From IMG/VR virus record IMGVR_UViG_3300022198_001530, positions 1 to 30,763 of that record: a stretch of DNA of 30,763 bases; one strand, written 5' to 3'. Both the position numbers and the translations under genes were made by a program. A model generated the notes under the pieces. It ran no database searches. It saw only the letters and a list, made by a program, of their open reading frames with translations, and was not told the DNA's origin. The DNA comes from a virus. Taxonomy: Duplodnaviria; Caudoviricetes. Each line of letters begins with the position of its first letter. Position 1 is the first letter of the stretch. Below are positions 1,288 through 28,139 of this stretch, in pieces.

Positions 1288-1732
1288 TTCCTTTATAAGA
1301 ATTCCCCCAGACGTAGCTAATCCTGAGGTTTTACGTAGAACTCTATTGCGTTTAGTGGAACAACTGGATGTGGCATTTGGGTTAAGAGGCGGTCCAAGAT
1401 TCAGTACAATAGCTGAAACTAACTCTGTTAGTTCGCAAGCGCAACAGATACAAGTATTACTGTCAGAAGAGGCTGCAGCTTTGTACGTGCGCCTAGATGG
1501 AGGCGTAGAGATTACAGCCCCACTGAAATACGCAGTTAATGAGACGTTTACTGACGATAAAGAATTGATAGCTAAAAAGTATGCTGATGATAACTTTACT
1601 AATAATCCACAAGGCACAGATCCTGGCGATTTATCTCAGACTATTACAGGACCTTCTGTAGCTGAGGTACAGGCTATCTCAGATAAAGTGGATGCTATAC
1701 TAGCAGAGTTACGGGTTGCAAATATAGTATGA
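1277..1732 (+). CDS. Hypothetical virion protein with a head-fibre-like C-terminal motif
   Basis: 151-aa ORF overlapping both neighbours. The C-terminus 'EVQAISDKVDAILAELRVANIV' resembles phage head-fibre-type trimerisation motifs. Confidence 0.5.
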   Translation: MADDSFIRIPPDVANPEVLRRTLLRLVEQLDVAFGLRGGPRFSTIAETNSVSSQAQQIQVLLSEEAAALYVRLDGGVEITAPLKYAVNETFTDDKELIAKKYADDNFTNNPQGTDPGDLSQTITGPSVAEVQAISDKVDAILAELRVANIV

Positions 1733-2136
1733 GTAGGTACTTAGTTAATACGATTGCGCAATTCTTGCCAATGACAGGTAGCGGTATACCGGTCTCTGAG
1801 TTTACGCCTGAGATAGTTAAAGAGTTGCTGAGTAATCCAAATGTAATTTACATTGAAGAACCTGGCAAAGGCTGTATATTAGGTATAGTGTACCCACACT
1901 TTTTAAACCCTGAATACACAATTTGCCAAGAACTAGGGTGGTGGGTAGAGCCTGAGTGGCGCGGTACTACTTTAGGTATGCGCTTAATTAAACAGTTTGA
2001 AACTGCAGCTAAACTAGCTGGAGCGGATAAAATTATCATGATACGCCTAGACTCGTTAGAGCCAGATAAGATAGAGGATATTTATCTTCGTACAGGCTAT
2101 CGTCCTTTAGAACGTTCTTTTATTAAGGAGCTATAA
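1729..2136 (+). CDS. GNAT-family acetyltransferase
   Basis: Acetyl-CoA-binding motif A-like 'WWVEPEWRGTTLGMRLI' and C-terminal 'IYLRTGY'. ATGA overlap with the upstream gene. Confidence 0.8.
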   Translation: MSRYLVNTIAQFLPMTGSGIPVSEFTPEIVKELLSNPNVIYIEEPGKGCILGIVYPHFLNPEYTICQELGWWVEPEWRGTTLGMRLIKQFETAAKLAGADKIIMIRLDSLEPDKIEDIYLRTGYRPLERSFIKEL

Positions 2137-13065: not shown

Positions 13066-14280
13066 TTATTTGTCTATCCTCACACAGGAGAATCTTGGAA
13101 GGAACAGACTATAGCTATTGGTAGCTGTATCTAGGATTACTGAGTTATATTTAACTTCAATAGTCTTGCCTTCATAGCCGTCTAGTGTGCGATCATAGTC
13201 AGACAGTCCAGACCCAACATTGACAGTAACAAATTTACCTTCAACTTCACCTACTAATTGCAAAGCTCCTATCATTCCTTCATACTTGCCTGCACCTTCT
13301 TCCCAACCGACACAAGTTAGATCAGCTGTTTTAGTTTCCTTCATTTTGACCCAATCTTTACTCCGTTTGAAAGTATACTTATGATCCTCTCGTTTAAGTA
13401 TCAGTCCTTCATATCCATCAGCTATTAGCTCTTTATAAAGCTCTTGTACTTCATGTGTGTTTTCACATGGCATAGTAAATGCAGGCACAAGATGGTCGCT
13501 ACGAACGCACTGTAAAATGTGAACCATATGGGTATACCTGGATTTATATTTAGTTGGACATGACCCCCTAATAAACTCATGGTAGTGCATAGCATCAAAC
13601 ACATTGAAACGAAGCTCTTCTTCTGCTATTCGCCCTCCATGTATAGCTGAGTTAATTTTACCAGAAATAGAGGTACGATCTTCAGACTTGCCAGACAAAA
13701 ACGTAACTTCTGTGTCTAACATGAACCCGTCGACAGGTAAGCTATTAAATAGATGCCCTGTGACCGGTAAGTTAACTACTTTACCATTGCGCGTCTTAAA
13801 TACAGCAGGCTGTCCAGGAGGTTTCAAAATAACTATGCGTACACCATCATATTTAATCTGAGCTAACACAGGAAATTTCACTTGTTCAAGCGGCACCTCT
13901 TTAGCTAGTTGTACTTCAAACTGTGGAATAGCCCCAGGATACTCTGTATTAAATAACTTAGCTGATACTCCGCAATCTAAGTCCTTATTACAAATTAGCT
14001 TAATGAGGTTTCCGTGTTGCTGGGCAAAATCTTCTACAGCATCTCGTGCTGCGTTACCAGTAAGCTCACGAGCAGCTAATTTATCTAGCAGTTGAAACAT
14101 TTCAACACAGGGTTCACCTAAGCCAGTGTGGGGTACTGAAGAGAACTTAAGCCCATATTGCTTATCTTTATCATAAGCGTATTTAAAAGTATGGATTAAC
14201 CAAGGATGATTACATTGCCGAATGAGCCTTTGCTTCTCAGATCTAGCAGAAGCTTTTTTTAGATCGTGTAGGATCTTCAT
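13066..14280 (-). CDS. ATP-dependent DNA ligase
   Basis: Motif I 'QIKYDGVR', motif III 'MLDTE', IIIa 'FNVFD', IV 'EGLILK', V 'WVKMK' and an OB domain ending 'SLFLPRF...R.DK'. Confidence 0.95.
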   Translation of the reverse strand: MKILHDLKKASARSEKQRLIRQCNHPWLIHTFKYAYDKDKQYGLKFSSVPHTGLGEPCVEMFQLLDKLAARELTGNAARDAVEDFAQQHGNLIKLICNKDLDCGVSAKLFNTEYPGAIPQFEVQLAKEVPLEQVKFPVLAQIKYDGVRIVILKPPGQPAVFKTRNGKVVNLPVTGHLFNSLPVDGFMLDTEVTFLSGKSEDRTSISGKINSAIHGGRIAEEELRFNVFDAMHYHEFIRGSCPTKYKSRYTHMVHILQCVRSDHLVPAFTMPCENTHEVQELYKELIADGYEGLILKREDHKYTFKRSKDWVKMKETKTADLTCVGWEEGAGKYEGMIGALQLVGEVEGKFVTVNVGSGLSDYDRTLDGYEGKTIEVKYNSVILDTATNSYSLFLPRFSCVRIDK

Positions 14281-15882: not shown

Positions 15883-16701
15883 TTATTCTCCGTGTACGTA
15901 AGGGCAACCTTCATTGTACAAAGTACAATACTTGTCTGAACAAAGGTAGTATTTAGGGTTACCGCGGAATAGCAAGTTAGGGGCTATACCACTGTGAAAA
16001 GCCTCTAATGTGTCTAACATAGTATTGATTAGATACTTAGCTCGTGGCACGTTTGACTCTAGCTCAAGCACATGTCCTGTAGGAGACTTAGTAAGAGCTA
16101 CACCTTGAATGGTTGCACGAGATACATCAAAGCCTTCTGACTCAGCTAGGAATTTATACGTAGATTGCTGGGTGACGTACGACTGAGCTACTGGTTTACG
16201 CTTAGAAGTCTTAACGTCTGATAATACGCCTGGAGCAATGTAGTCAATAGTACCACCAACATTGCTAACTATCGGATGTGCCACTTCAATGTCAATGCGG
16301 TGCTCAACCTTAATAGGAATATCAACAAAAGGTACAATATCTTCTACAAAAGCTTTGGAGCCTTGTATTACTTCATTCTCAGCAGTACGAGAGTTTTCAC
16401 CTGGGTCGTATTGAAGATCAGTATCCAGGTTTTGGAACTCTTCAATAGCTGCATCACACATCATAGTGAGATTAACCTCTTCTTTATTCTGTGTGAGTTG
16501 AGCTTCTTTCCACATCTCTTCTACGCCCTTGTGAATAGCTGTGCCAATAGCTGCACGAGCATTAGGAATAGTTACACGGCCTTCAAGGAAAACCTTAGCC
16601 CATTGAAAAGGGCAATTAAAGAAAGTATCAATTGCAGAAGGGCGGATACAGATAGCTTTGCCATCGTAGTCAATATCAGTAGTAATTTTAGACATTTTCA
16701 T
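15883..16701 (-). CDS. Cas4/RecB-like PD-(D/E)XK exonuclease
   Basis: 'RPSAI....CP', 'GTAIH', 'GTID......DVKTS', 'Q...Y' and C-terminal 'C....C......CP' (1+3 Cys pattern). Confidence 0.85.
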   Translation of the reverse strand: MKMSKITTDIDYDGKAICIRPSAIDTFFNCPFQWAKVFLEGRVTIPNARAAIGTAIHKGVEEMWKEAQLTQNKEEVNLTMMCDAAIEEFQNLDTDLQYDPGENSRTAENEVIQGSKAFVEDIVPFVDIPIKVEHRIDIEVAHPIVSNVGGTIDYIAPGVLSDVKTSKRKPVAQSYVTQQSTYKFLAESEGFDVSRATIQGVALTKSPTGHVLELESNVPRAKYLINTMLDTLEAFHSGIAPNLLFRGNPKYYLCSDKYCTLYNEGCPYVHGE

Positions 16702-17317
16702 TTGCCTCAGTAATAGTTAACAAAAAACCTACATTAGTAAACACATGCCAAAGATGTGGCATACCAGAGTCAGGATCATTTATCTCACCTTGACGCCAGG
16801 CTGCTAAGTGCCTACGCAATGCCGCATAATAACGATCAACTTCACCATGTTGCCAATTATTAGGTTTATATTTCTTAGCTCCATGAGTTAAGACTTTAGC
16901 TAAAGCTAACTCCCATTCTGGAGGTATAAGATCATAGCGAACTTTGTCATCATCGAACTTAATAAACTGTTCGCACACATGAACTGATACGGGATAAGGC
17001 GCAGAGTTAATTACCTCAAGACATTTATTACATGGTGGCTGAGTGACATACATAGTAAAAGTACTATCTGTAGTGTACTCCGGAGCTAAGCCATAATAGA
17101 ACGCATCTTCAATAGCCATAGCTTCAGCATGAACCACATCAGAAGGACACTTATCTTGTTTAGTGCACATGCAGGTCATAGAGTTGTTATACCCGCGACC
17201 TACCACTGCCTCTATTTTATCTAAGACAATAATTGCCCCAACCTTTCGCTCATTACACACAGATTTTTTAGCTTCATCACGAGCTAATTGCTCAAACTTT
17301 TTTGTTAGCATTTGCAT
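16688..17317 (-). CDS. dCMP deaminase fused to a dATP/dGTP diphosphohydrolase-type (DUF5664-like) domain
   Basis: N-half: 'KVGAII', 'GYN', 'HAE', 'PCNKC'. C-half from ~aa 120: 'KFDDDKVRYDLIP...GAKKY...NW...RHL..W..GE..DPDSG..HL.H...N..FL'. Confidence 0.85.
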   Translation of the reverse strand: MQMLTKKFEQLARDEAKKSVCNERKVGAIIVLDKIEAVVGRGYNNSMTCMCTKQDKCPSDVVHAEAMAIEDAFYYGLAPEYTTDSTFTMYVTQPPCNKCLEVINSAPYPVSVHVCEQFIKFDDDKVRYDLIPPEWELALAKVLTHGAKKYKPNNWQHGEVDRYYAALRRHLAAWRQGEINDPDSGMPHLWHVFTNVGFLLTITEANENV

Positions 17318-17822
17318 GCTCCTGTAGAATTAATTGAAGTCGTGGTTCTGGTGGAATAAAACTAGAACCTTTATCTATGTTAGCTTTAACACTAGGATCA
17401 GTCTTTTTAACTGACTTAGAGTCATTACTATCACAGACTATTAGCATGGCTTTGTTAAATAAAGCCTCAGATAAGCCAGATAAATCTTCACAAGCATTAA
17501 TAATGCAACCAATAGTTCCAGCCATTAATTTAGGCTCATCCGCAGAACAAAAGCGATCGACATACCAATCTAGAAATGCTTTAGGTGGAACTTTAGTATA
17601 GATACACTCAACCATATCAAGCTTGTTCATCTTCCACAAAATGCCTACTGCGATATAAGTAAGGTCACAAAGAGCGTCTAGCCGATCTACAGGTGTTTGT
17701 GCTGTTTCATACTCCATTAGCTCTTCTAATAGAAGGTCTTCAGCTAATTGCTTATTAAAGACTTGGTCGTAACGTTGACGATTCCAATCTATAATACGTA
17801 GCACAACTAAATTACTTAACAT
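17292..17822 (-). CDS. MazG-like / PRA-PH-like nucleotide pyrophosphohydrolase
   Basis: All-alpha NTP-PPase motif 'LLEELMEY...DALCDL.YIA.G' plus 'V..SN.SK' and 'K...F..PE'. Confidence 0.75.
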   Translation of the reverse strand: MLSNLVVLRIIDWNRQRYDQVFNKQLAEDLLLEELMEYETAQTPVDRLDALCDLTYIAVGILWKMNKLDMVECIYTKVPPKAFLDWYVDRFCSADEPKLMAGTIGCIINACEDLSGLSEALFNKAMLIVCDSNDSKSVKKTDPSVKANIDKGSSFIPPEPRLQLILQEHANANKKV

Positions 17823-17830
17823 GTTTTCAC

Positions 17831-18652
17831 CTATGCGTGTAATTTAAAAGAAATGGAATCTAGTTGATCCCAAGTAGTGACTCTAAAAGAATCATTGTTA
17901 AACTCTTTATAGTCAGTAATCATTTGTAACTCATAAACAGGGTAGAAACTCTCTGGATTAGTTACTCTATCTGAGTATCGTTCCGCTCTAGCTAAGTACT
18001 CAATAGCGCCAAAAGCATGATCCCCATAAATATGACAGTCCCCCAATTGCATTGTTACTGCCCCAGGTTTAAGATTAGTTAGGTAAGCCACTAAGATAAT
18101 AAACATATTAGCTAACATAATATCTGATGGTAACCCTATCATTACATCTATAGATCTTTGGATCCATACCATGTTCAGCTCACCATGCTGAGTCACATAG
18201 AACTGATACGCATAATGACAACAAGGCAAACTAGACTTAGCTATATTAGTAGGATCCCAGCCACTAATCAAATGCCTACGACTATGTGGATTTAACTGTA
18301 AGTCAGAAATAACATTCTCTAACTGGTTTACACCTCCGAAGTCAATCCATTTATTACCATAATCTACATTAAGTGAGCCGTCAGGTTTAGCCCACTGTTT
18401 CCAATAGTTACAACCTTCAATCTCAAAGTCTTGCACTGTTTTAGGTCCACGTAGAAATGCCGCCATCTCACCAATAACCCCTTTAGGGTATAACTTGCGC
18501 ATTAAAGGCACTGGAAATTTATCGCCTACATAGTACTTTAGTTGGTGGCCAAAGATACTACTGGTTACAGCATTACGACCTTCAGAGACTTTTCCATCAT
18601 CCAGTATAGCACGTAGTAAACTACAATATTGTACTTCTAAATTGTTATTCAT
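17831..18652 (-). CDS. thyA: Thymidylate synthase-family enzyme with Asp at the Asn177-equivalent position
   Basis: 'SRR', catalytic 'LPCCH...QFYV', 'QRSID...GLPSD', 'GDCHIY..H'. Family is clear; substrate is uncertain (see findings). Confidence 0.88.
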   Translation of the reverse strand: MNNNLEVQYCSLLRAILDDGKVSEGRNAVTSSIFGHQLKYYVGDKFPVPLMRKLYPKGVIGEMAAFLRGPKTVQDFEIEGCNYWKQWAKPDGSLNVDYGNKWIDFGGVNQLENVISDLQLNPHSRRHLISGWDPTNIAKSSLPCCHYAYQFYVTQHGELNMVWIQRSIDVMIGLPSDIMLANMFIILVAYLTNLKPGAVTMQLGDCHIYGDHAFGAIEYLARAERYSDRVTNPESFYPVYELQMITDYKEFNNDSFRVTTWDQLDSISFKLHA

Positions 18653-19179
18653 TTTTGCATCTCTCTAAAAATATTAAGGATATGATGAGTTTGCCAAATC
18701 GCATCATGCAAAGCATTATGGTTAGTTAATTCAGGCAGTTCTGGATGCTCTGCTTTAACTAAATGTTTTAATGTACGGTAACACCCGTCTTGGGTAAAAT
18801 GCCATGGAGCTTTTAAACCATTATTTTTATACGCAGAGCGCAAAATCACATTATCAAAAGTGGCACCGTTCCCCCAAACTACTGGTTTGCTAGGCAAACT
18901 ATTAATAAAGGCTGTAAACTTTTCTAAAGCTTGTAATAACCCTGTACTAGCGTTATATACCTCTCTTCTAGCTTCTTCTGATTGTTGTAGCCACCACAAC
19001 ACAGTATCGCCATTAACTTTTCCATTGTGTTCCATAGCATCAGTTAAGTTTACTTTGACGTAAAATTCACGGTGTATTCCGTTAGTATAAGTAAACGCTG
19101 TAGCCCCAATAGCTATAATAGCAGCATCATTGTTAGTACCCATAGTTTCTAAATCTAACATTACATGTTGGTCTTTCAT
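18649..19179 (-). CDS. DEDDh 3'-5' exonuclease/exoribonuclease
   Basis: 'VMLDLET', 'WGNGATFD..IL' and 'HNALHDA..Q'. Confidence 0.88.
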   Translation of the reverse strand: MKDQHVMLDLETMGTNNDAAIIAIGATAFTYTNGIHREFYVKVNLTDAMEHNGKVNGDTVLWWLQQSEEARREVYNASTGLLQALEKFTAFINSLPSKPVVWGNGATFDNVILRSAYKNNGLKAPWHFTQDGCYRTLKHLVKAEHPELPELTNHNALHDAIWQTHHILNIFREMQK

Positions 19180-19181
19180 AA

Positions 19182-20828
19182 TTATTCCTTAGTAAATTTA
19201 TAGATGTGCTCATCTTCAATCTTACCCCAATTAAAGCCTGCATAGACATCCACAGGCATGGGTAAGTCCTTAATCTTAGTTGAACGACAACACTCAAACC
19301 AAGCCTCTTGCATTGCTTCAGACATAACCCTAGCTACTTGTTCGTGAACTGATCTGTCATTGTCACATTCAAGAACCCAAGAGTCATGTACAAAGTTACA
19401 AACCTTAATATCACCTGGCAAACCTCTTAACGCAGGCATCATGTAGTGTGTAGCTAGTTTAGCCACTTCAGCACCAAAGCCTTGCACTTGTATATTAAGA
19501 TGGTCAGTCATTAGTTTGCCAACATAACGACGACCAAGAGGTGTCTGCCAGGGTTGCTTCTTGCGCCAAGCAGCTATACCGCGTTGTTGCCAGGCATAGA
19601 TACCAGTCCATAAGTTTTGCCACTTCTTCTTAATCATAGCTAACTCAGCTTCTGGAACTAATAGGCCTGCGTCTTTAATCAAGATAGACCCCAGCATGCC
19701 ATGACTACCTCCATACAATAAGTTGAAGTTAGCTGTCTTAGCTACTTGCCTAGACGCTTTAATCATGTCTGCAGTATATTGGTGCAAGTCTTCGCCTGAA
19801 CGGAATAGCTCTTCCATACGTAGTTCGCCAGTTATTGCGCAACCTCCACGTAGCTCTAATTGTGAATAGTCACTGTATATAAGTGATCTACCGCTGTCAG
19901 GCTCTACGCCAAAGACGTCTTTAGTTTTGCGTGGGATCTGTTGAAGGTTCTGGTCACCACAAGTACAACGACCTGACCTGGCTGAGGGTTTAAACCGACC
20001 ATAAATGCGGCCAGAAGCAACATCAAACTTAGTTAAGAAGCTATTCTGTTTTATTAACTTGCGAACTTCATTAACTTGTGCGGCTCGTTCATTACCTTGC
20101 AAGGCAAAGGTAGCTAAAGCTAAACCGTCTGATTCGCTCTCACCGATGTATGGACGAACTTGTTGCCAGGAGTTAACATTAATAGGTAAAGCTAACTCAT
20201 CAATGCGAGCTAGGTTAGATCTGTAACGGTTTTGCAACTCTTCCGCTAACACAGGCATACCATTTTGCTGAAACTCAAGACAGTATCTGGTAAAGAGAAT
20301 GTCTAGCTTATAGCTAAAATCGTCTTGCATCTCAGATAACTTGTCAAGCACTTCAAACATATGGAATACATCTAGCGCCGCATACATTTCTTGTGCAGGA
20401 GACAATAGACCTGACCAACTAGATTTCTGCAAATCTTTCTTGCTCAGCCCTGCTTGTTCATAAGGATCATAGCCTAAAACATAGCTAAGGACATCATCAA
20501 GAGTGAACTTCTCTTTAGTATAATAGTACAAACGAGACAAGTAAAATGTATCAATAAACTCACCAGGCAGCCAGTTAGCTCCTGTTTGAGTTTGGAGTAC
20601 TGAAAAATCATAGTGCAGGTTATGGCCAATCGGGGTCACTTCTTTAATGAAGTTAGCTAATGTGTATGGCTCAGGCTTACGTACTAGCTTAACTTCAGGC
20701 CAATGTGGCTGATAGAATTGAGCAACCTCTATTTGACCATAGAAACCATCAGTTTCTGTGTCAAAAGCTATGGGTTGCTTTATGTTTGTTGAGGACATTA
20801 CATCCTCAAGAGTAGTGAATGCGTACAT
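19182..20828 (-). CDS. DNA polymerase, family A (3'-5' exonuclease + polymerase)
   Basis: Exo motifs 'FDTET', 'HNLHYD', 'YAALD'; 'SGR.....NLQQIP'; motif A 'DYSQLELR'; motif B 'RQVAKTANFNLLYG'; motif C 'VHDS'. Confidence 0.95.
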   Translation of the reverse strand: MYAFTTLEDVMSSTNIKQPIAFDTETDGFYGQIEVAQFYQPHWPEVKLVRKPEPYTLANFIKEVTPIGHNLHYDFSVLQTQTGANWLPGEFIDTFYLSRLYYYTKEKFTLDDVLSYVLGYDPYEQAGLSKKDLQKSSWSGLLSPAQEMYAALDVFHMFEVLDKLSEMQDDFSYKLDILFTRYCLEFQQNGMPVLAEELQNRYRSNLARIDELALPINVNSWQQVRPYIGESESDGLALATFALQGNERAAQVNEVRKLIKQNSFLTKFDVASGRIYGRFKPSARSGRCTCGDQNLQQIPRKTKDVFGVEPDSGRSLIYSDYSQLELRGGCAITGELRMEELFRSGEDLHQYTADMIKASRQVAKTANFNLLYGGSHGMLGSILIKDAGLLVPEAELAMIKKKWQNLWTGIYAWQQRGIAAWRKKQPWQTPLGRRYVGKLMTDHLNIQVQGFGAEVAKLATHYMMPALRGLPGDIKVCNFVHDSWVLECDNDRSVHEQVARVMSEAMQEAWFECCRSTKIKDLPMPVDVYAGFNWGKIEDEHIYKFTKE

Positions 20829-23537: not shown

Positions 23538-23945
23538 TCAGATCCATTGCTTTGTAGTAGGCGACGCATGCTTAGTAATATTTGTAGCTTTTGCATTGCG
23601 CAAGTCATTAGCTATACCTAACTTAGCTTTACGGATTCGTAATTGTAAATCCGCATAACCTGTTAAGTCTACTATGTCCACAATATGTTTGAACTCAATA
23701 GTATTAGACAGCTCAACCTGGCAAGTCTCATGGACTTCAACTACTTGTACAACAGAGAATCCTTTCTGAGTCTCTACTACTGCATAGTCACCCTCACTTA
23801 CTTTGCCTTGCATATCATCAGGCACAATGTAAGTGTACTTGCGAGGCCCATCAGACCCATAAGTAGTTGAAGGAAAGATACAGCCAATAGTTTGCACCTG
23901 TTTTTCAATCAGCAATGCATTATACAATTTCAGTTCGTCTTTCAT
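23538..23945 (-). CDS. Hypothetical phage protein
   Basis: 135 aa with a 'K.YTY......GD..VV.....V..V' pattern; GGAG RBS; TAATG coupling. Confidence 0.7.
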   Translation of the reverse strand: MKDELKLYNALLIEKQVQTIGCIFPSTTYGSDGPRKYTYIVPDDMQGKVSEGDYAVVETQKGFSVVQVVEVHETCQVELSNTIEFKHIVDIVDLTGYADLQLRIRKAKLGIANDLRNAKATNITKHASPTTKQWI

Positions 23946-24103
23946 TACAGATCTCCATAGTTAGTTACAAACCATTCAGCGAAAATCCGCTTCTTACCTT
24001 GGATCTTACAGATAAGAATTCCAGGCTTTTTACGAATGTCTTTTTCCAGGACTTCGACTTCAGTTCTGTTTAACAACTTAACAGTTATAGACCTAATACT
24101 CAT
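23945..24103 (-). CDS. Small basic hypothetical protein
   Basis: GGAGA RBS favours ATG 24103; coupled to both neighbours. Confidence 0.55.
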   Translation of the reverse strand: MSIRSITVKLLNRTEVEVLEKDIRKKPGILICKIQGKKRIFAEWFVTNYGDL

Positions 24104-24494
24104 TTGCTTTTGTCTCCATTTGTTCAAGACGTTCAAAGATACGCGCTAAGTTTAACGCGATTGCTTTACCATCAGGCTCCCAGTCATGCATACAATACTT
24201 TGGTATGCCAATAACTAAGGAGTCTGGATCAGTAAACTGTACTTGTATACCACGCCGTTTACATTCAGCAATCAATTGTTTTTGACGCTTAAGTAAATAG
24301 CCACAGCGAGTATAAAAGAATTTCATATGGCCAGTGCCAAGCACATACTGGTCAGATTGTGTGTGACAAGGTAATTCGCCTTTCCCTTCAAGTGCTTTCT
24401 TTACAAGAGTAAAGATACGAGGCAACTCACGATACTCAGCTAACAAGTGTTTGTCGTGTAGTATCTCAGGATCCACACAGTTGATACGTGTCAT
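24093..24494 (-). CDS. denV: Pyrimidine-dimer DNA glycosylase / endonuclease V
   Basis: 'MTRIN...L.D.HLLAEYRELPRIF' (Thr2 and the catalytic Glu), 'Y.LGTGH.KFFY' and 'E...RG', as in T4 endonuclease V. Confidence 0.93.
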   Translation of the reverse strand: MTRINCVDPEILHDKHLLAEYRELPRIFTLVKKALEGKGELPCHTQSDQYVLGTGHMKFFYTRCGYLLKRQKQLIAECKRRGIQVQFTDPDSLVIGIPKYCMHDWEPDGKAIALNLARIFERLEQMETKANEY

Positions 24495-27641: not shown

Positions 27642-28139
27642 TTAGGCAGCTTTCTCAGCAGAGGCTTTGACCATGTCCTCTTCGCTGATGCCAATGCCGT
27701 CAGCACGCGGATGGATCTTGGCACGACGCTTCTCGATCTTGTCCATCTCAGCCTTGATAGCTGAGGGCTCGATCTCACCAGTAGCGACTTTGGCCAGGAG
27801 CGCGTCCTTCTCGCTCTTGCTGTCACGCTGTTGCTTGGTCCAGGCAGCTGTGCCCTCTTTGCACATGTTGCTGTAGCCAGTAGGAGAGCTGGCCTTCTTG
27901 CCATACTCGACCATACCTTCACCTTCGCCAACAGGCTCCCACATTTTGTGGTAGTAGCAGAAGATGTGGGTCACGTTGCCTGCATCGTCACGAATGACAG
28001 TAGAGGCGGCACGACCACCGCCACCAACTTTGGCAGCACAGAGTTCAGTTGCTTCGGCCAGGATAGAAGAGACTTTCTTGTCTTTGTTCTGTTCCAGGAA
28101 TTCGATGAGAGGCTGGAAAGCCTTTTTTACATTAGCCAT
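27642..28139 (-). CDS. Lys/Ala-rich protein with a putative zinc-binding motif, monocistronic
   Basis: AGGAGA RBS; own promoter and terminator; 'CYYH...G....CKE' motif; codon usage visibly richer in C/G-ending codons than its neighbours. Confidence 0.8.
   Translation of the reverse strand: MANVKKAFQPLIEFLEQNKDKKVSSILAEATELCAAKVGGGGRAASTVIRDDAGNVTHIFCYYHKMWEPVGEGEGMVEYGKKASSPTGYSNMCKEGTAAWTKQQRDSKSEKDALLAKVATGEIEPSAIKAEMDKIEKRRAKIHPRADGIGISEEDMVKASAEKAA

Follow-up and report, generated by a model that had tools for sequence, protein, structure and literature searches.

A thymidylate synthase (TS) homolog, encoded by a podophage in the 30,763-nucleotide stretch of DNA analysed here (hereafter the window), probably produces 5-methyl-dCMP (5mdCMP) for DNA in which 5-methylcytosine (5mC) replaces cytosine. 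Both the enzyme class and the module of genes around it are already known, and the window adds another member, in a lineage apart from that of phage Xp12. What is new is a pattern among the neighbouring genes: at loci whose TS homolog carries aspartate at the position of Asn177 of E. coli ThyA (Asp177 loci), one place in the module, the putative kinase slot, is taken by one of four gene families.

A ThyA-like enzyme with aspartate at position 177

ORF 17831-18652 (Table 1), the sole TS-type gene found in the genome, contains a single Pfam family, PF00303 (residues 8-270; 194.7 bits, E 2e-57). The first-pass annotation had aligned its product without gaps to ThyA, with Asp in place of Asn177, and had considered the catalytic Cys-His pair and the DxHxY motif intact. 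Both statements were confirmed: QRSIDVMIGLPSD (residues 165-177) pairs gap-free with QRSCDVFLGLPFN in the MG1655 record of E. coli ThyA, which is the basis for taking the Asp, encoded by GAT, as the equivalent of the Asn177 of canonical ThyA, and Cys145-His146 and the DCHIY motif (D205, H207, Y209) are unbroken. The hallmarks of the superfamily, i.e. the TS fold, the catalytic Cys, the phosphate-binding Arg residues and His207/Tyr209, are all present, the C-terminal tail is complete and ends in register with that of ThyA, and 16 of 20 active-site positions are identical to those of E. coli ThyA, the exceptions being I79Y, V93D, F176S and N177D. A model generated with AF2 from a 118-row alignment (pLDDT 96.5) matched canonical TSs best, with TM values of 0.87-0.89 and an rmsd of 1.6-1.9 Å for the E. 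coli ThyA entries. It had also been correctly noted that the enzyme is nearer to canonical ThyA (125 bits) than to T4 gp42 (40 bits); the Xp12 enzyme, 27% identical, scored 72 bits.

A search for homologs gave 530 matches in all, and Asp177 is present in all 120 of those listed. The residue recurs at 89 out of 91 related loci and at 78 out of 80 loci from metagenomes; it is therefore neither the result of chance nor a sequencing error, but a marker of the clade. The Leu residue three positions ahead of the catalytic Cys is invariant in the 118-row alignment and was found in 79 of the 80 metagenome loci, and a further clade-invariant residue, Asp97, replaces ThyA Val93 near the active site. The alignment and tree that had been suggested as a check place this ThyA-like sequence apart from the Xp12 enzyme, the window clade and the Xp12 lineage lying on separate well-supported branches (100/97 vs 100/100). 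Asp177 enzymes form three clades on this tree, which is unrooted; the window lineage is distinct from that of Xp12, and the tree is compatible with one origin of Asp177 as well as with separate ones.

Asn177 variants also occur within the Asp177 clade (L041:1165-2025, L087:9998-10813, L104 and L246), and in a quick tree the first three of these nest at three separate places. No deaminase gene was found beside the Asn177 variants, two of three records being fragments (49% and 11% complete) and the third being covered for 10 kb on each side; L104 retains genes for PRA-PH and DUF6378. Judging by these sequences, the variants are apparent reversions to the use of dUMP.

It has been reported that Asp177 selects dCMP and that position 147, too, ranks at the top in discriminating modified contigs (PMC8670742), that Leu143, Trp83 and the C-terminal tail accompany methylation and that an acidic residue (Asp or Glu) three places ahead of the catalytic Cys, together with loss of the tail, marks hydroxymethylases (PMC6400193), and that Asn169 marks 5-hydroxy-dCMP synthases (PMC13326640). 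The residue code of the window enzyme (D177, L143, D169, W80, W83 and H147 in ThyA numbering) includes the combination characteristic of 5mdCMP synthases, i.e. Asp177, a hydrophobic residue at 143 and Asp169 (D177, L142 and D169 of the window protein), and the likely product is 5mdCMP, not a hydroxymethyl or hydroxy compound. Of the two activities proposed in the first-pass annotation, dCMP methylase and hydroxymethylase, the former is thus supported (Asp177, Leu143, Asp169), whereas the latter is not (no Asp/Glu at 143, tail kept), and its preference for 5mdCMP as the product agrees with every published residue rule that we found. Two features are loose ends with respect to this code: His147 is kept, and an invariant Asp stands in place of Val93.

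Table 1. Features of the window and the evidence for them
Feature	Position	Strand	Evidence or remarks
GNAT acetyltransferase, among virion genes	1729-2136	+	
ATP-dependent DNA ligase	13066..14280	-	PF01068, PF14743
DUF5664 domain fused to deaminase, residues 120-205	16703..16960	-	PF18909 E 1e-30; four-helix model
Zinc cytidylate-deaminase domain, residues 6-106 of ORF 16688-17317	17000..17302	-	PF00383, PF14437 (both over the cut-off)
MazG/PRA-PH-type nucleotide pyrophosphohydrolase, 176 aa; putative dCTP and/or dUTP removal	17292..17822	-	PF01503, phrog_671
ThyA-fold enzyme, predicted dCMP 5-methyltransferase (5mdCMP synthase), 273 aa	17831..18652	-	PF00303; phrog_160; model and fold search; active-site table
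Asp177 codon GAT, dCMP-specificity residue	18122..18124	-	invariant in 118-row alignment
Asp169 (Asn at same position marks 5-hydroxy-dCMP synthases)	18146..18148	-	sequence
Catalytic Cys145 and His146 (= ThyA C146, H147)	18215..18220	-	sequence; Xp12 has Pro at 147
Leu142 (= ThyA Leu143), methyl-not-hydroxymethyl signature	18227..18229	-	sequence; invariant in alignment
Rv2179c-like 3'-5' exonuclease, between polymerase and methylase genes; accessory	18649..19179	-	PF16473; 15/91 loci
Family A DNA polymerase with 3'-5' exonuclease domain; predicted 5mdCTP incorporation	19182..20828	-	PF00476, PF01612
135-aa protein, function not assigned	23538-23945	-	weak PriA 3'-binding-domain match
T4 endonuclease V-like pyrimidine-dimer glycosylase	24093-24494	-	PF03013

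The gene module, the phage and its relatives

The genes encoding the MazG/PRA-PH-type protein and the deaminase-DUF5664 fusion lie downstream of the TS gene, and those of the exonuclease and the family A DNA polymerase (Pol A) upstream of it. Five domains (TS, MafB19-deam, PRA-PH, DNA_pol_A and exo1) have been reported around the deaminases of modified contigs (bioRxiv 10.1101/2024.12.05.627091), and, as in these MetaGPA modules, all five are co-localised in the window, within 4.2 kb. The PRA-PH-like protein matches PF01503 weakly (17.9 bits, under the cut-off of 21.3) and phrog_671 strongly (E 4e-14); it is 35-41% identical to the same-slot proteins of VPMS1, KF-1, Amaethon and PH1, and a PDB sequence search with it gave no match. 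The HAE and PCxxC motifs of the deaminase, which was aligned with those of Xp12 and PaMx74, are unbroken, and this enzyme would convert 5mdC nucleotides to dT nucleotides. Its ORF carries PF00383 beside an Asp177 TS, a combination expected of a 5mC-selective deaminase (mSCD); the preference of mSCDs for 5mdCTP over dCTP is described as polyphyletic and without a sequence rule (bioRxiv 10.1101/2024.12.05.627091).

Asp177 enzymes accompanied by PRA-PH, deaminase and ligase domains have been tied to cytosine-modified contigs, the ligase Pfam domains being among those enriched there (PMC8670742). In E. coli supplied with T4 gp1 for the kinase step, 5mdCMP was produced by five of seven such TSs, deaminase B5 converted 5mdCTP to dTTP, and a pathway was proposed for Xp12 (bioRxiv 10.1101/2024.12.05.627091). 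The novelty that the first-pass annotation saw in the gene is lost, since natural Asp177 TS homologs with genes for PRA-PH, a deaminase and Pol A next to them have already been published, and some of these homologs were shown to make 5mdCMP, and the rule used for mining IMG/VR in the preprint (PF00383 + PF00303 + Asp177) would pick the window locus (bioRxiv 10.1101/2024.12.05.627091). B5 is a single 154-aa domain, whereas the window deaminase has an additional DUF5664 domain.

The DNA of Xp12 is 100% 5mC (PMC7653180), and matching restriction resistance has been reported for AXL1 (PMC9206674). The modules of Xp12 and PaMx74 comprise PRA-PH, TS, deaminase and DHFR. The window resembles them in Asp177, the hydrophobic residue at 143 and Asp169, in the adjoining PRA-PH and cytidylate deaminase genes (the PRA-PH protein having a sub-cut-off Pfam score but a strong PHROG match) and in the lack of palindrome avoidance. 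It differs in having His147 and Trp83 (Pro147 and Phe83 in Xp12), no linked DHFR gene, and DUF5664 fused to the deaminase, whereas the fusion in Xp12 is one of PRA-PH with a DUF1599-like domain; moreover, it comes from a podophage with ~41% GC and not from a siphophage with 68%. Another member of the Xp12 lineage, Achromobacter phage 83-24, has, like the window, no DHFR gene within 6.5 kb. An HhH-GPD glycosylase-like gene adjoins the 5mC module of Xp12 (L029:46973-47455), and perhaps its product repairs T:G mismatches arising from 5mC deamination.

For a survey of gene content, 127 loci were reduced to 89 by removal of near-copies (90%) and to 63 with at least 2.5 kb of upstream and 3 kb of downstream sequence (long-flank loci), 61 of which encode Asp177 enzymes. 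Within 6.5 kb, and with profiles built from these same loci, a deaminase gene was found in 51 of the 61, a MazG-type gene in 53 and a DHFR-like gene in 19; ten have no deaminase, the complete VPMS1 genome included, and eight no MazG-type gene nearby. The DHFR count depends on the reading of a family of 115-140-aa proteins, pooled into the DHFR profile, which lacks a Pfam or PHROG match and looks by eye like a divergent DHFR; its gene immediately follows that of the TS and was found in 15 of 91 loci (L010, L011, L014, L016, L023 (10794-11207), L027, L028, L035, L043, L066, L069 and others). No DHFR gene was found in the window or the extended contig, and no recognisable P-loop kinase or DHFR gene in 10.6 kb of this near-identical, 84% complete contig or in the window itself. 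Among 138 representatives of neighbouring genes there was no glycosyltransferase, carbamoyltransferase or TET protein, and hypermodification was rejected in the absence of such transferase genes. Z-base (2-aminoadenine) DNA, considered because of DUF5664, was also rejected, there being no PurZ-like match among the 35 window ORFs and the 138 representatives. Several gene fusions were observed, i.e. (i) a 5'-3' exonuclease-like domain fused to a TS homolog (L010:9089-10792, 567 aa), which is possibly a frameshift artefact, (ii) a MazG, deaminase and DUF5664 fusion of 395 aa (L069:10383-11567), and (iii) PRA-PH fused to thymidylate kinase (L053:7971-8816).

The window represents 30.8 kb of the podophage genome, with virion genes, including that of a P22-like portal, on the plus strand, and a minus-strand replication arm encoding a primase-helicase, a Dda-like helicase, SSB, Pol A, nucleases, an SF2 helicase and a ligase. 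In its portal the phage shares 52-57% identity with PH1, VPMS1, KF-1, IW-1, ETP-1, ZHX, Amaethon and two spring-water phages, and the 12 records concerned are also the best 12 matches of the TS. Judging by these matches, the phage is a Kafunavirus-like podophage. The TSs of KF-1, IW-1, ETP-1, ZHX, VPMS1, Pseudoalteromonas phage PH1, Dickeya phage Amaethon and Kolga are 42-46% identical to the window enzyme. Asp177 is present in all five cultured phages that were aligned, the gene order of KF-1, PH1 and Amaethon is that of the window, and all of these TSs are annotated as plain thymidylate synthase. Vibrio phage VPMS1 differs from the window in having DUF6378 and no deaminase, and Pelagibacter phage Kolga in having a DUF1599-like gene.

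Some further genes of these phages were noted. The T4 endonuclease V-like gene has counterparts in only 4 of 91 loci, and VPMS1 also has one, while the family of the 135-aa protein is found in 36 of 91, mostly between the SSB and polymerase genes. Contig L192, which reaches beyond the window in the same genome, carries an early gene (L192:2579-3046) paralogous to another in the window (27642-28139; phrog_10459), both encoding proteins of 155-165 aa. A Tad2-like anti-Thoeris protein (PF11195) is encoded at L063:1656-1985, and the product of a 168-aa ORF adjoining the terminase gene (L192:3882-4388) resembles it by eye.

A slot occupied by one of four gene families

Each of the 61 long-flank Asp177 loci has exactly one slot gene, which encodes DUF5664 in 38 of them, DUF6378 in 16, a P-loop kinase in five and a DUF1599-like protein in two. 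Under shuffling this pattern was obtained on average for 32 of the 61 loci, and for 46 at most. The four families were chosen after the neighbourhoods had been viewed, so the presence of at least one of them is partly built in, but the absence of two is not. Among 21 short-flank Asp177 loci that had been set aside, one slot gene was found in 19, none in one and two in L095 (DUF1599-like and kinase). When the profiles had been fixed, 11 new long-flank metagenome loci were found to have one slot gene in ten cases, none in L217 and two in no case, and 38 short-flank metagenome loci to have one in 23 cases and none in 15. The TS homolog of L217 is split over two ORFs (L217:5899-6696), beside an interrupted ribonucleotide reductase gene. 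A slot gene is also present in 4 of 4 held-out phages of the Xp12 lineage: it encodes DUF6378 in 83-24, a PRA-PH-kinase fusion in RDJL Phi1 and RcSimone, and a fusion of PRA-PH with a DUF1599-like domain in V45iii. Xp12 and PaMx74 have the last of these arrangements too; the DUF1599-like profile had been built with these two.

Profile matches of the P-loop slot proteins are to phrog_139 (dNMP kinase), with E 3e-9, to PF21448, with E 4e-14, or to phrog_761 (thymidylate kinase), while their PDB matches are only weak. The five loci encoding them are scattered on the tree, which implies five changes, at least three of them forced by well-supported branches. Host kinases phosphorylate 5mdCMP poorly, and Xp12 induces a 5mdCMP kinase activity of its own. 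As DUF5664 swaps with dNMP kinases in the one-of-four slot, it may be the missing 5mdCMP kinase. Whether DUF5664, DUF6378 and DUF1599-like proteins are indeed non-orthologous replacements of dNMP kinases, i.e. small helical enzymes phosphorylating 5mdCMP, is in our judgement evenly balanced. Possibly, phosphate or pyrophosphate is passed from a dNTP to 5mdCMP, and the slow hydrolysis observed for a DUF5664 homolog represents the acceptor-less reaction. This homolog, from Arthrobacter phage Wayne, belongs to the same Pfam family as the domain of the window, and differs from the role considered here in having been assayed as a pyrophosphohydrolase that slowly (kcat 0.05-0.5/s) converts dATP, dUTP and dGTP to monophosphates (PMC12884076). 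The deaminase-fused DUF5664 domain may therefore be a candidate 5mdCMP kinase or a dNTP pyrophosphatase; it is not a stand-in for the pyrophosphatase of the module, because 36 of the 38 DUF5664 loci carry a MazG-type gene as well.

DUF5664 lacks the features of P-loop dNMP kinases such as T4 gp1 or Tmk: it is modelled as four helices with no significant PDB match, and its hhalign probabilities against T7 gp1.7 and the kinases are below 1%, as are those among DUF5664, DUF6378, DUF1599-like proteins and gp1.7. A PDB search with the model returned only weak MazG/DR2231 rows (E ~2, TM ~0.3), which would lean, if anything, to a pyrophosphatase; a fold search in BFVD found only its own family among the best 50 matches, and searches of the ESM Atlas found nothing outside the slot families themselves. 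A four-helix fold without kinase homology lowers the probability that the domain is a known kinase, but not that it works as one. T7 gp1.7 (DUF3310), which has no significant profile similarity to DUF5664, is a phage nucleotide kinase of another family (PMC9339283). Against the kinase reading, DUF5664 is found in many phages without the module, often beside phosphatases, and the Asn177 locus L104 retains DUF6378. A literature search found no paper assigning kinase activity to DUF5664, DUF6378 or DUF1599-like proteins.

Proposed pathway and alternative readings

To begin the proposed Xp12-type pathway, the ThyA-fold Asp177 enzyme would methylate dCMP to 5mdCMP. This would be phosphorylated to 5mdCTP, for which the deaminase-fused DUF5664 domain is the most likely enzyme (with about equal chances of being so or not), and the 5mdCTP would be incorporated by the phage Pol A, while the MazG-type neighbour would clear unmodified dCTP or dUTP. 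Some of the 5mdC nucleotides would be converted by the deaminase to dT nucleotides, which would make a second TS unnecessary. Methylenetetrahydrofolate would be oxidised to dihydrofolate, and recycling by the host DHFR is proposed because no DHFR was found in the phage genome. The pathway is built on the residues, fold, gene set, conservation and co-occurrence observed here, from which the activities and the DNA modification are predicted. The retention of His147, the identity of only 27% with the Xp12 enzyme and the failure of two of the seven published enzymes to give 5mdCMP speak against it, as do the loci in which the deaminase (ten of 61) or a nearby MazG-type gene (eight of 61) is absent. 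We found no nucleoside analysis of any clade member in the literature, and no report of modified DNA in Kafunavirus-like phages in a search conducted mostly outside subscription journals.

The frequency of restriction palindromes was expressed as the observed/expected ratio (O/E) of C-containing 6-bp palindromes, those containing GATC being left out. The values are 0.94 for the window, 0.94 for Xp12 and 0.92 for PaMx74, with a median of 0.88 (0.68-1.02) in 45 clade loci of at least 15 kb, and 0.44, 0.35, 0.44 and 0.67 for T7, VpV262, ICP2 and LUZ24, podophages that we picked as unmodified controls. A further 32 control loci, retrieved by way of Pol A (31 without TS, one with Asn177), have a median of ~0.72 (0.19-0.97; p 7e-6 vs the clade), a noisy signal given that these controls are GC-richer (median 0.58) and reach 0.97, and that the loci are related, not independent. 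A/T-only palindromes are alike in the clade and the controls (p 0.51). For CCWGG, the window has an O/E of 1.8, compared with 0.00-0.02 for T7, VpV262 and ICP2. The Asn177 locus L104 has a palindrome O/E of 0.94, and the Asp177 loci L165 and L191, outside the clade, have 0.66 and 0.48. The lack of avoidance of C-containing palindromes fits modified DNA, as supporting but not decisive evidence. GATC is avoided in many clade members (median O/E 0.27) and is nearly absent (0.0-0.1) from about half of the clade loci, e.g. L001, L004, L010, L013, L018 and L019, with no avoidance in the window (0.99); the loss of GATC alongside unavoided C-palindromes would fit nucleases governed by adenine methylation.

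That the enzyme hydroxymethylates or 5-hydroxylates dCMP, in the style of T4 or RB69, is highly improbable. T4 gp42 and the RB69/DLP3 enzymes share Asp177, the catalytic Cys and the TS fold with it (PMC6400193, PMC13326640), its invariant Asp97 occupies the ThyA Val93 position, equated with the water-binding Ser94 of T4 (PMC6400193), and 42 of the 61 loci have no DHFR-like gene nearby. However, Asp97 is also present in an Asn177 variant, and the features by which those systems differ, i.e. Asp/Glu143 (Glu in RB69 and DLP3), glycosyltransferases, Asn169 in the 5-hydroxy type and absence of the tail in gp42, do not apply to the window: its enzyme has Leu142, not Asp or Glu, before the Cys, Val-Asp-Tyr instead of Ser-x-Tyr, and Asp169, Trp83 and the full tail, its match to gp42 is weak, and no hypermodification genes were found among the neighbours. 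We also regard as very unlikely an ordinary or dual-specificity TS acting on dUMP, supplied by a dCMP/dCTP deaminase and dUTPase-like neighbours. The enzyme is matched best, in sequence as in structure, by canonical ThyA and His147 is kept, the hydrolysis of dUTP by the Wayne homolog would suit a deaminase-dUTPase fusion (PMC12884076), and some Asp-type TSs reside on contigs scored as unmodified (bioRxiv 10.1101/2024.12.05.627091); yet Asp177 is a tested determinant against dUMP (PMC8670742, PMC6400193, PMC13326640), it is kept over hundreds of homologs with 42-58% identity, and the Asn variants that exist on the same scaffold lose the deaminase.

Another reading, which we consider unlikely, is that 5mdCMP is solely an intermediate on a roundabout route to dTMP (methylation of dCMP to 5mdCMP, followed by deamination), the cytosine of the DNA being ordinary or partly methylated. 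The lack of another TS-type gene in the genome, the frequency of the deaminase (51 of 61 loci) and the absence of a recognisable P-loop kinase or DHFR from the window and the 10.6 kb of near-identical contig are in its favour. However, ten Asp177 loci, including the complete VPMS1, do without a deaminase, and the product must therefore have another use there; in addition, no long-flank locus is without a kinase or one of its slot substitutes, there is no avoidance of restriction palindromes, and deaminase B5 acts on 5mdCTP, not 5mdCMP (bioRxiv 10.1101/2024.12.05.627091).

If 5mdCMP indeed serves the synthesis of 5mC-containing DNA, a widespread podophage clade with cultured members would form a second, ThyA-like lineage of 5mC phages. 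It is predicted that the plainly annotated cultured phages KF-1, PH1, VPMS1, Amaethon and Kolga have such DNA, which, if true, would bear on their restriction resistance. The enzyme is close to a natural counterpart of the laboratory N177D mutant, and the Asn variants may provide a clean system for the specificity switch. The slot genes are candidates for the kinase step filled by T4 gp1 in published reconstructions (bioRxiv 10.1101/2024.12.05.627091). Should the kinase reading prove true, the 5mdCMP kinase of Xp12 would be the C-terminal domain of QNN97215 and the kinases of Kafunavirus-like phages would also be named, which would give a clue to the role of three common phage domains whose function is unassigned or disputed.
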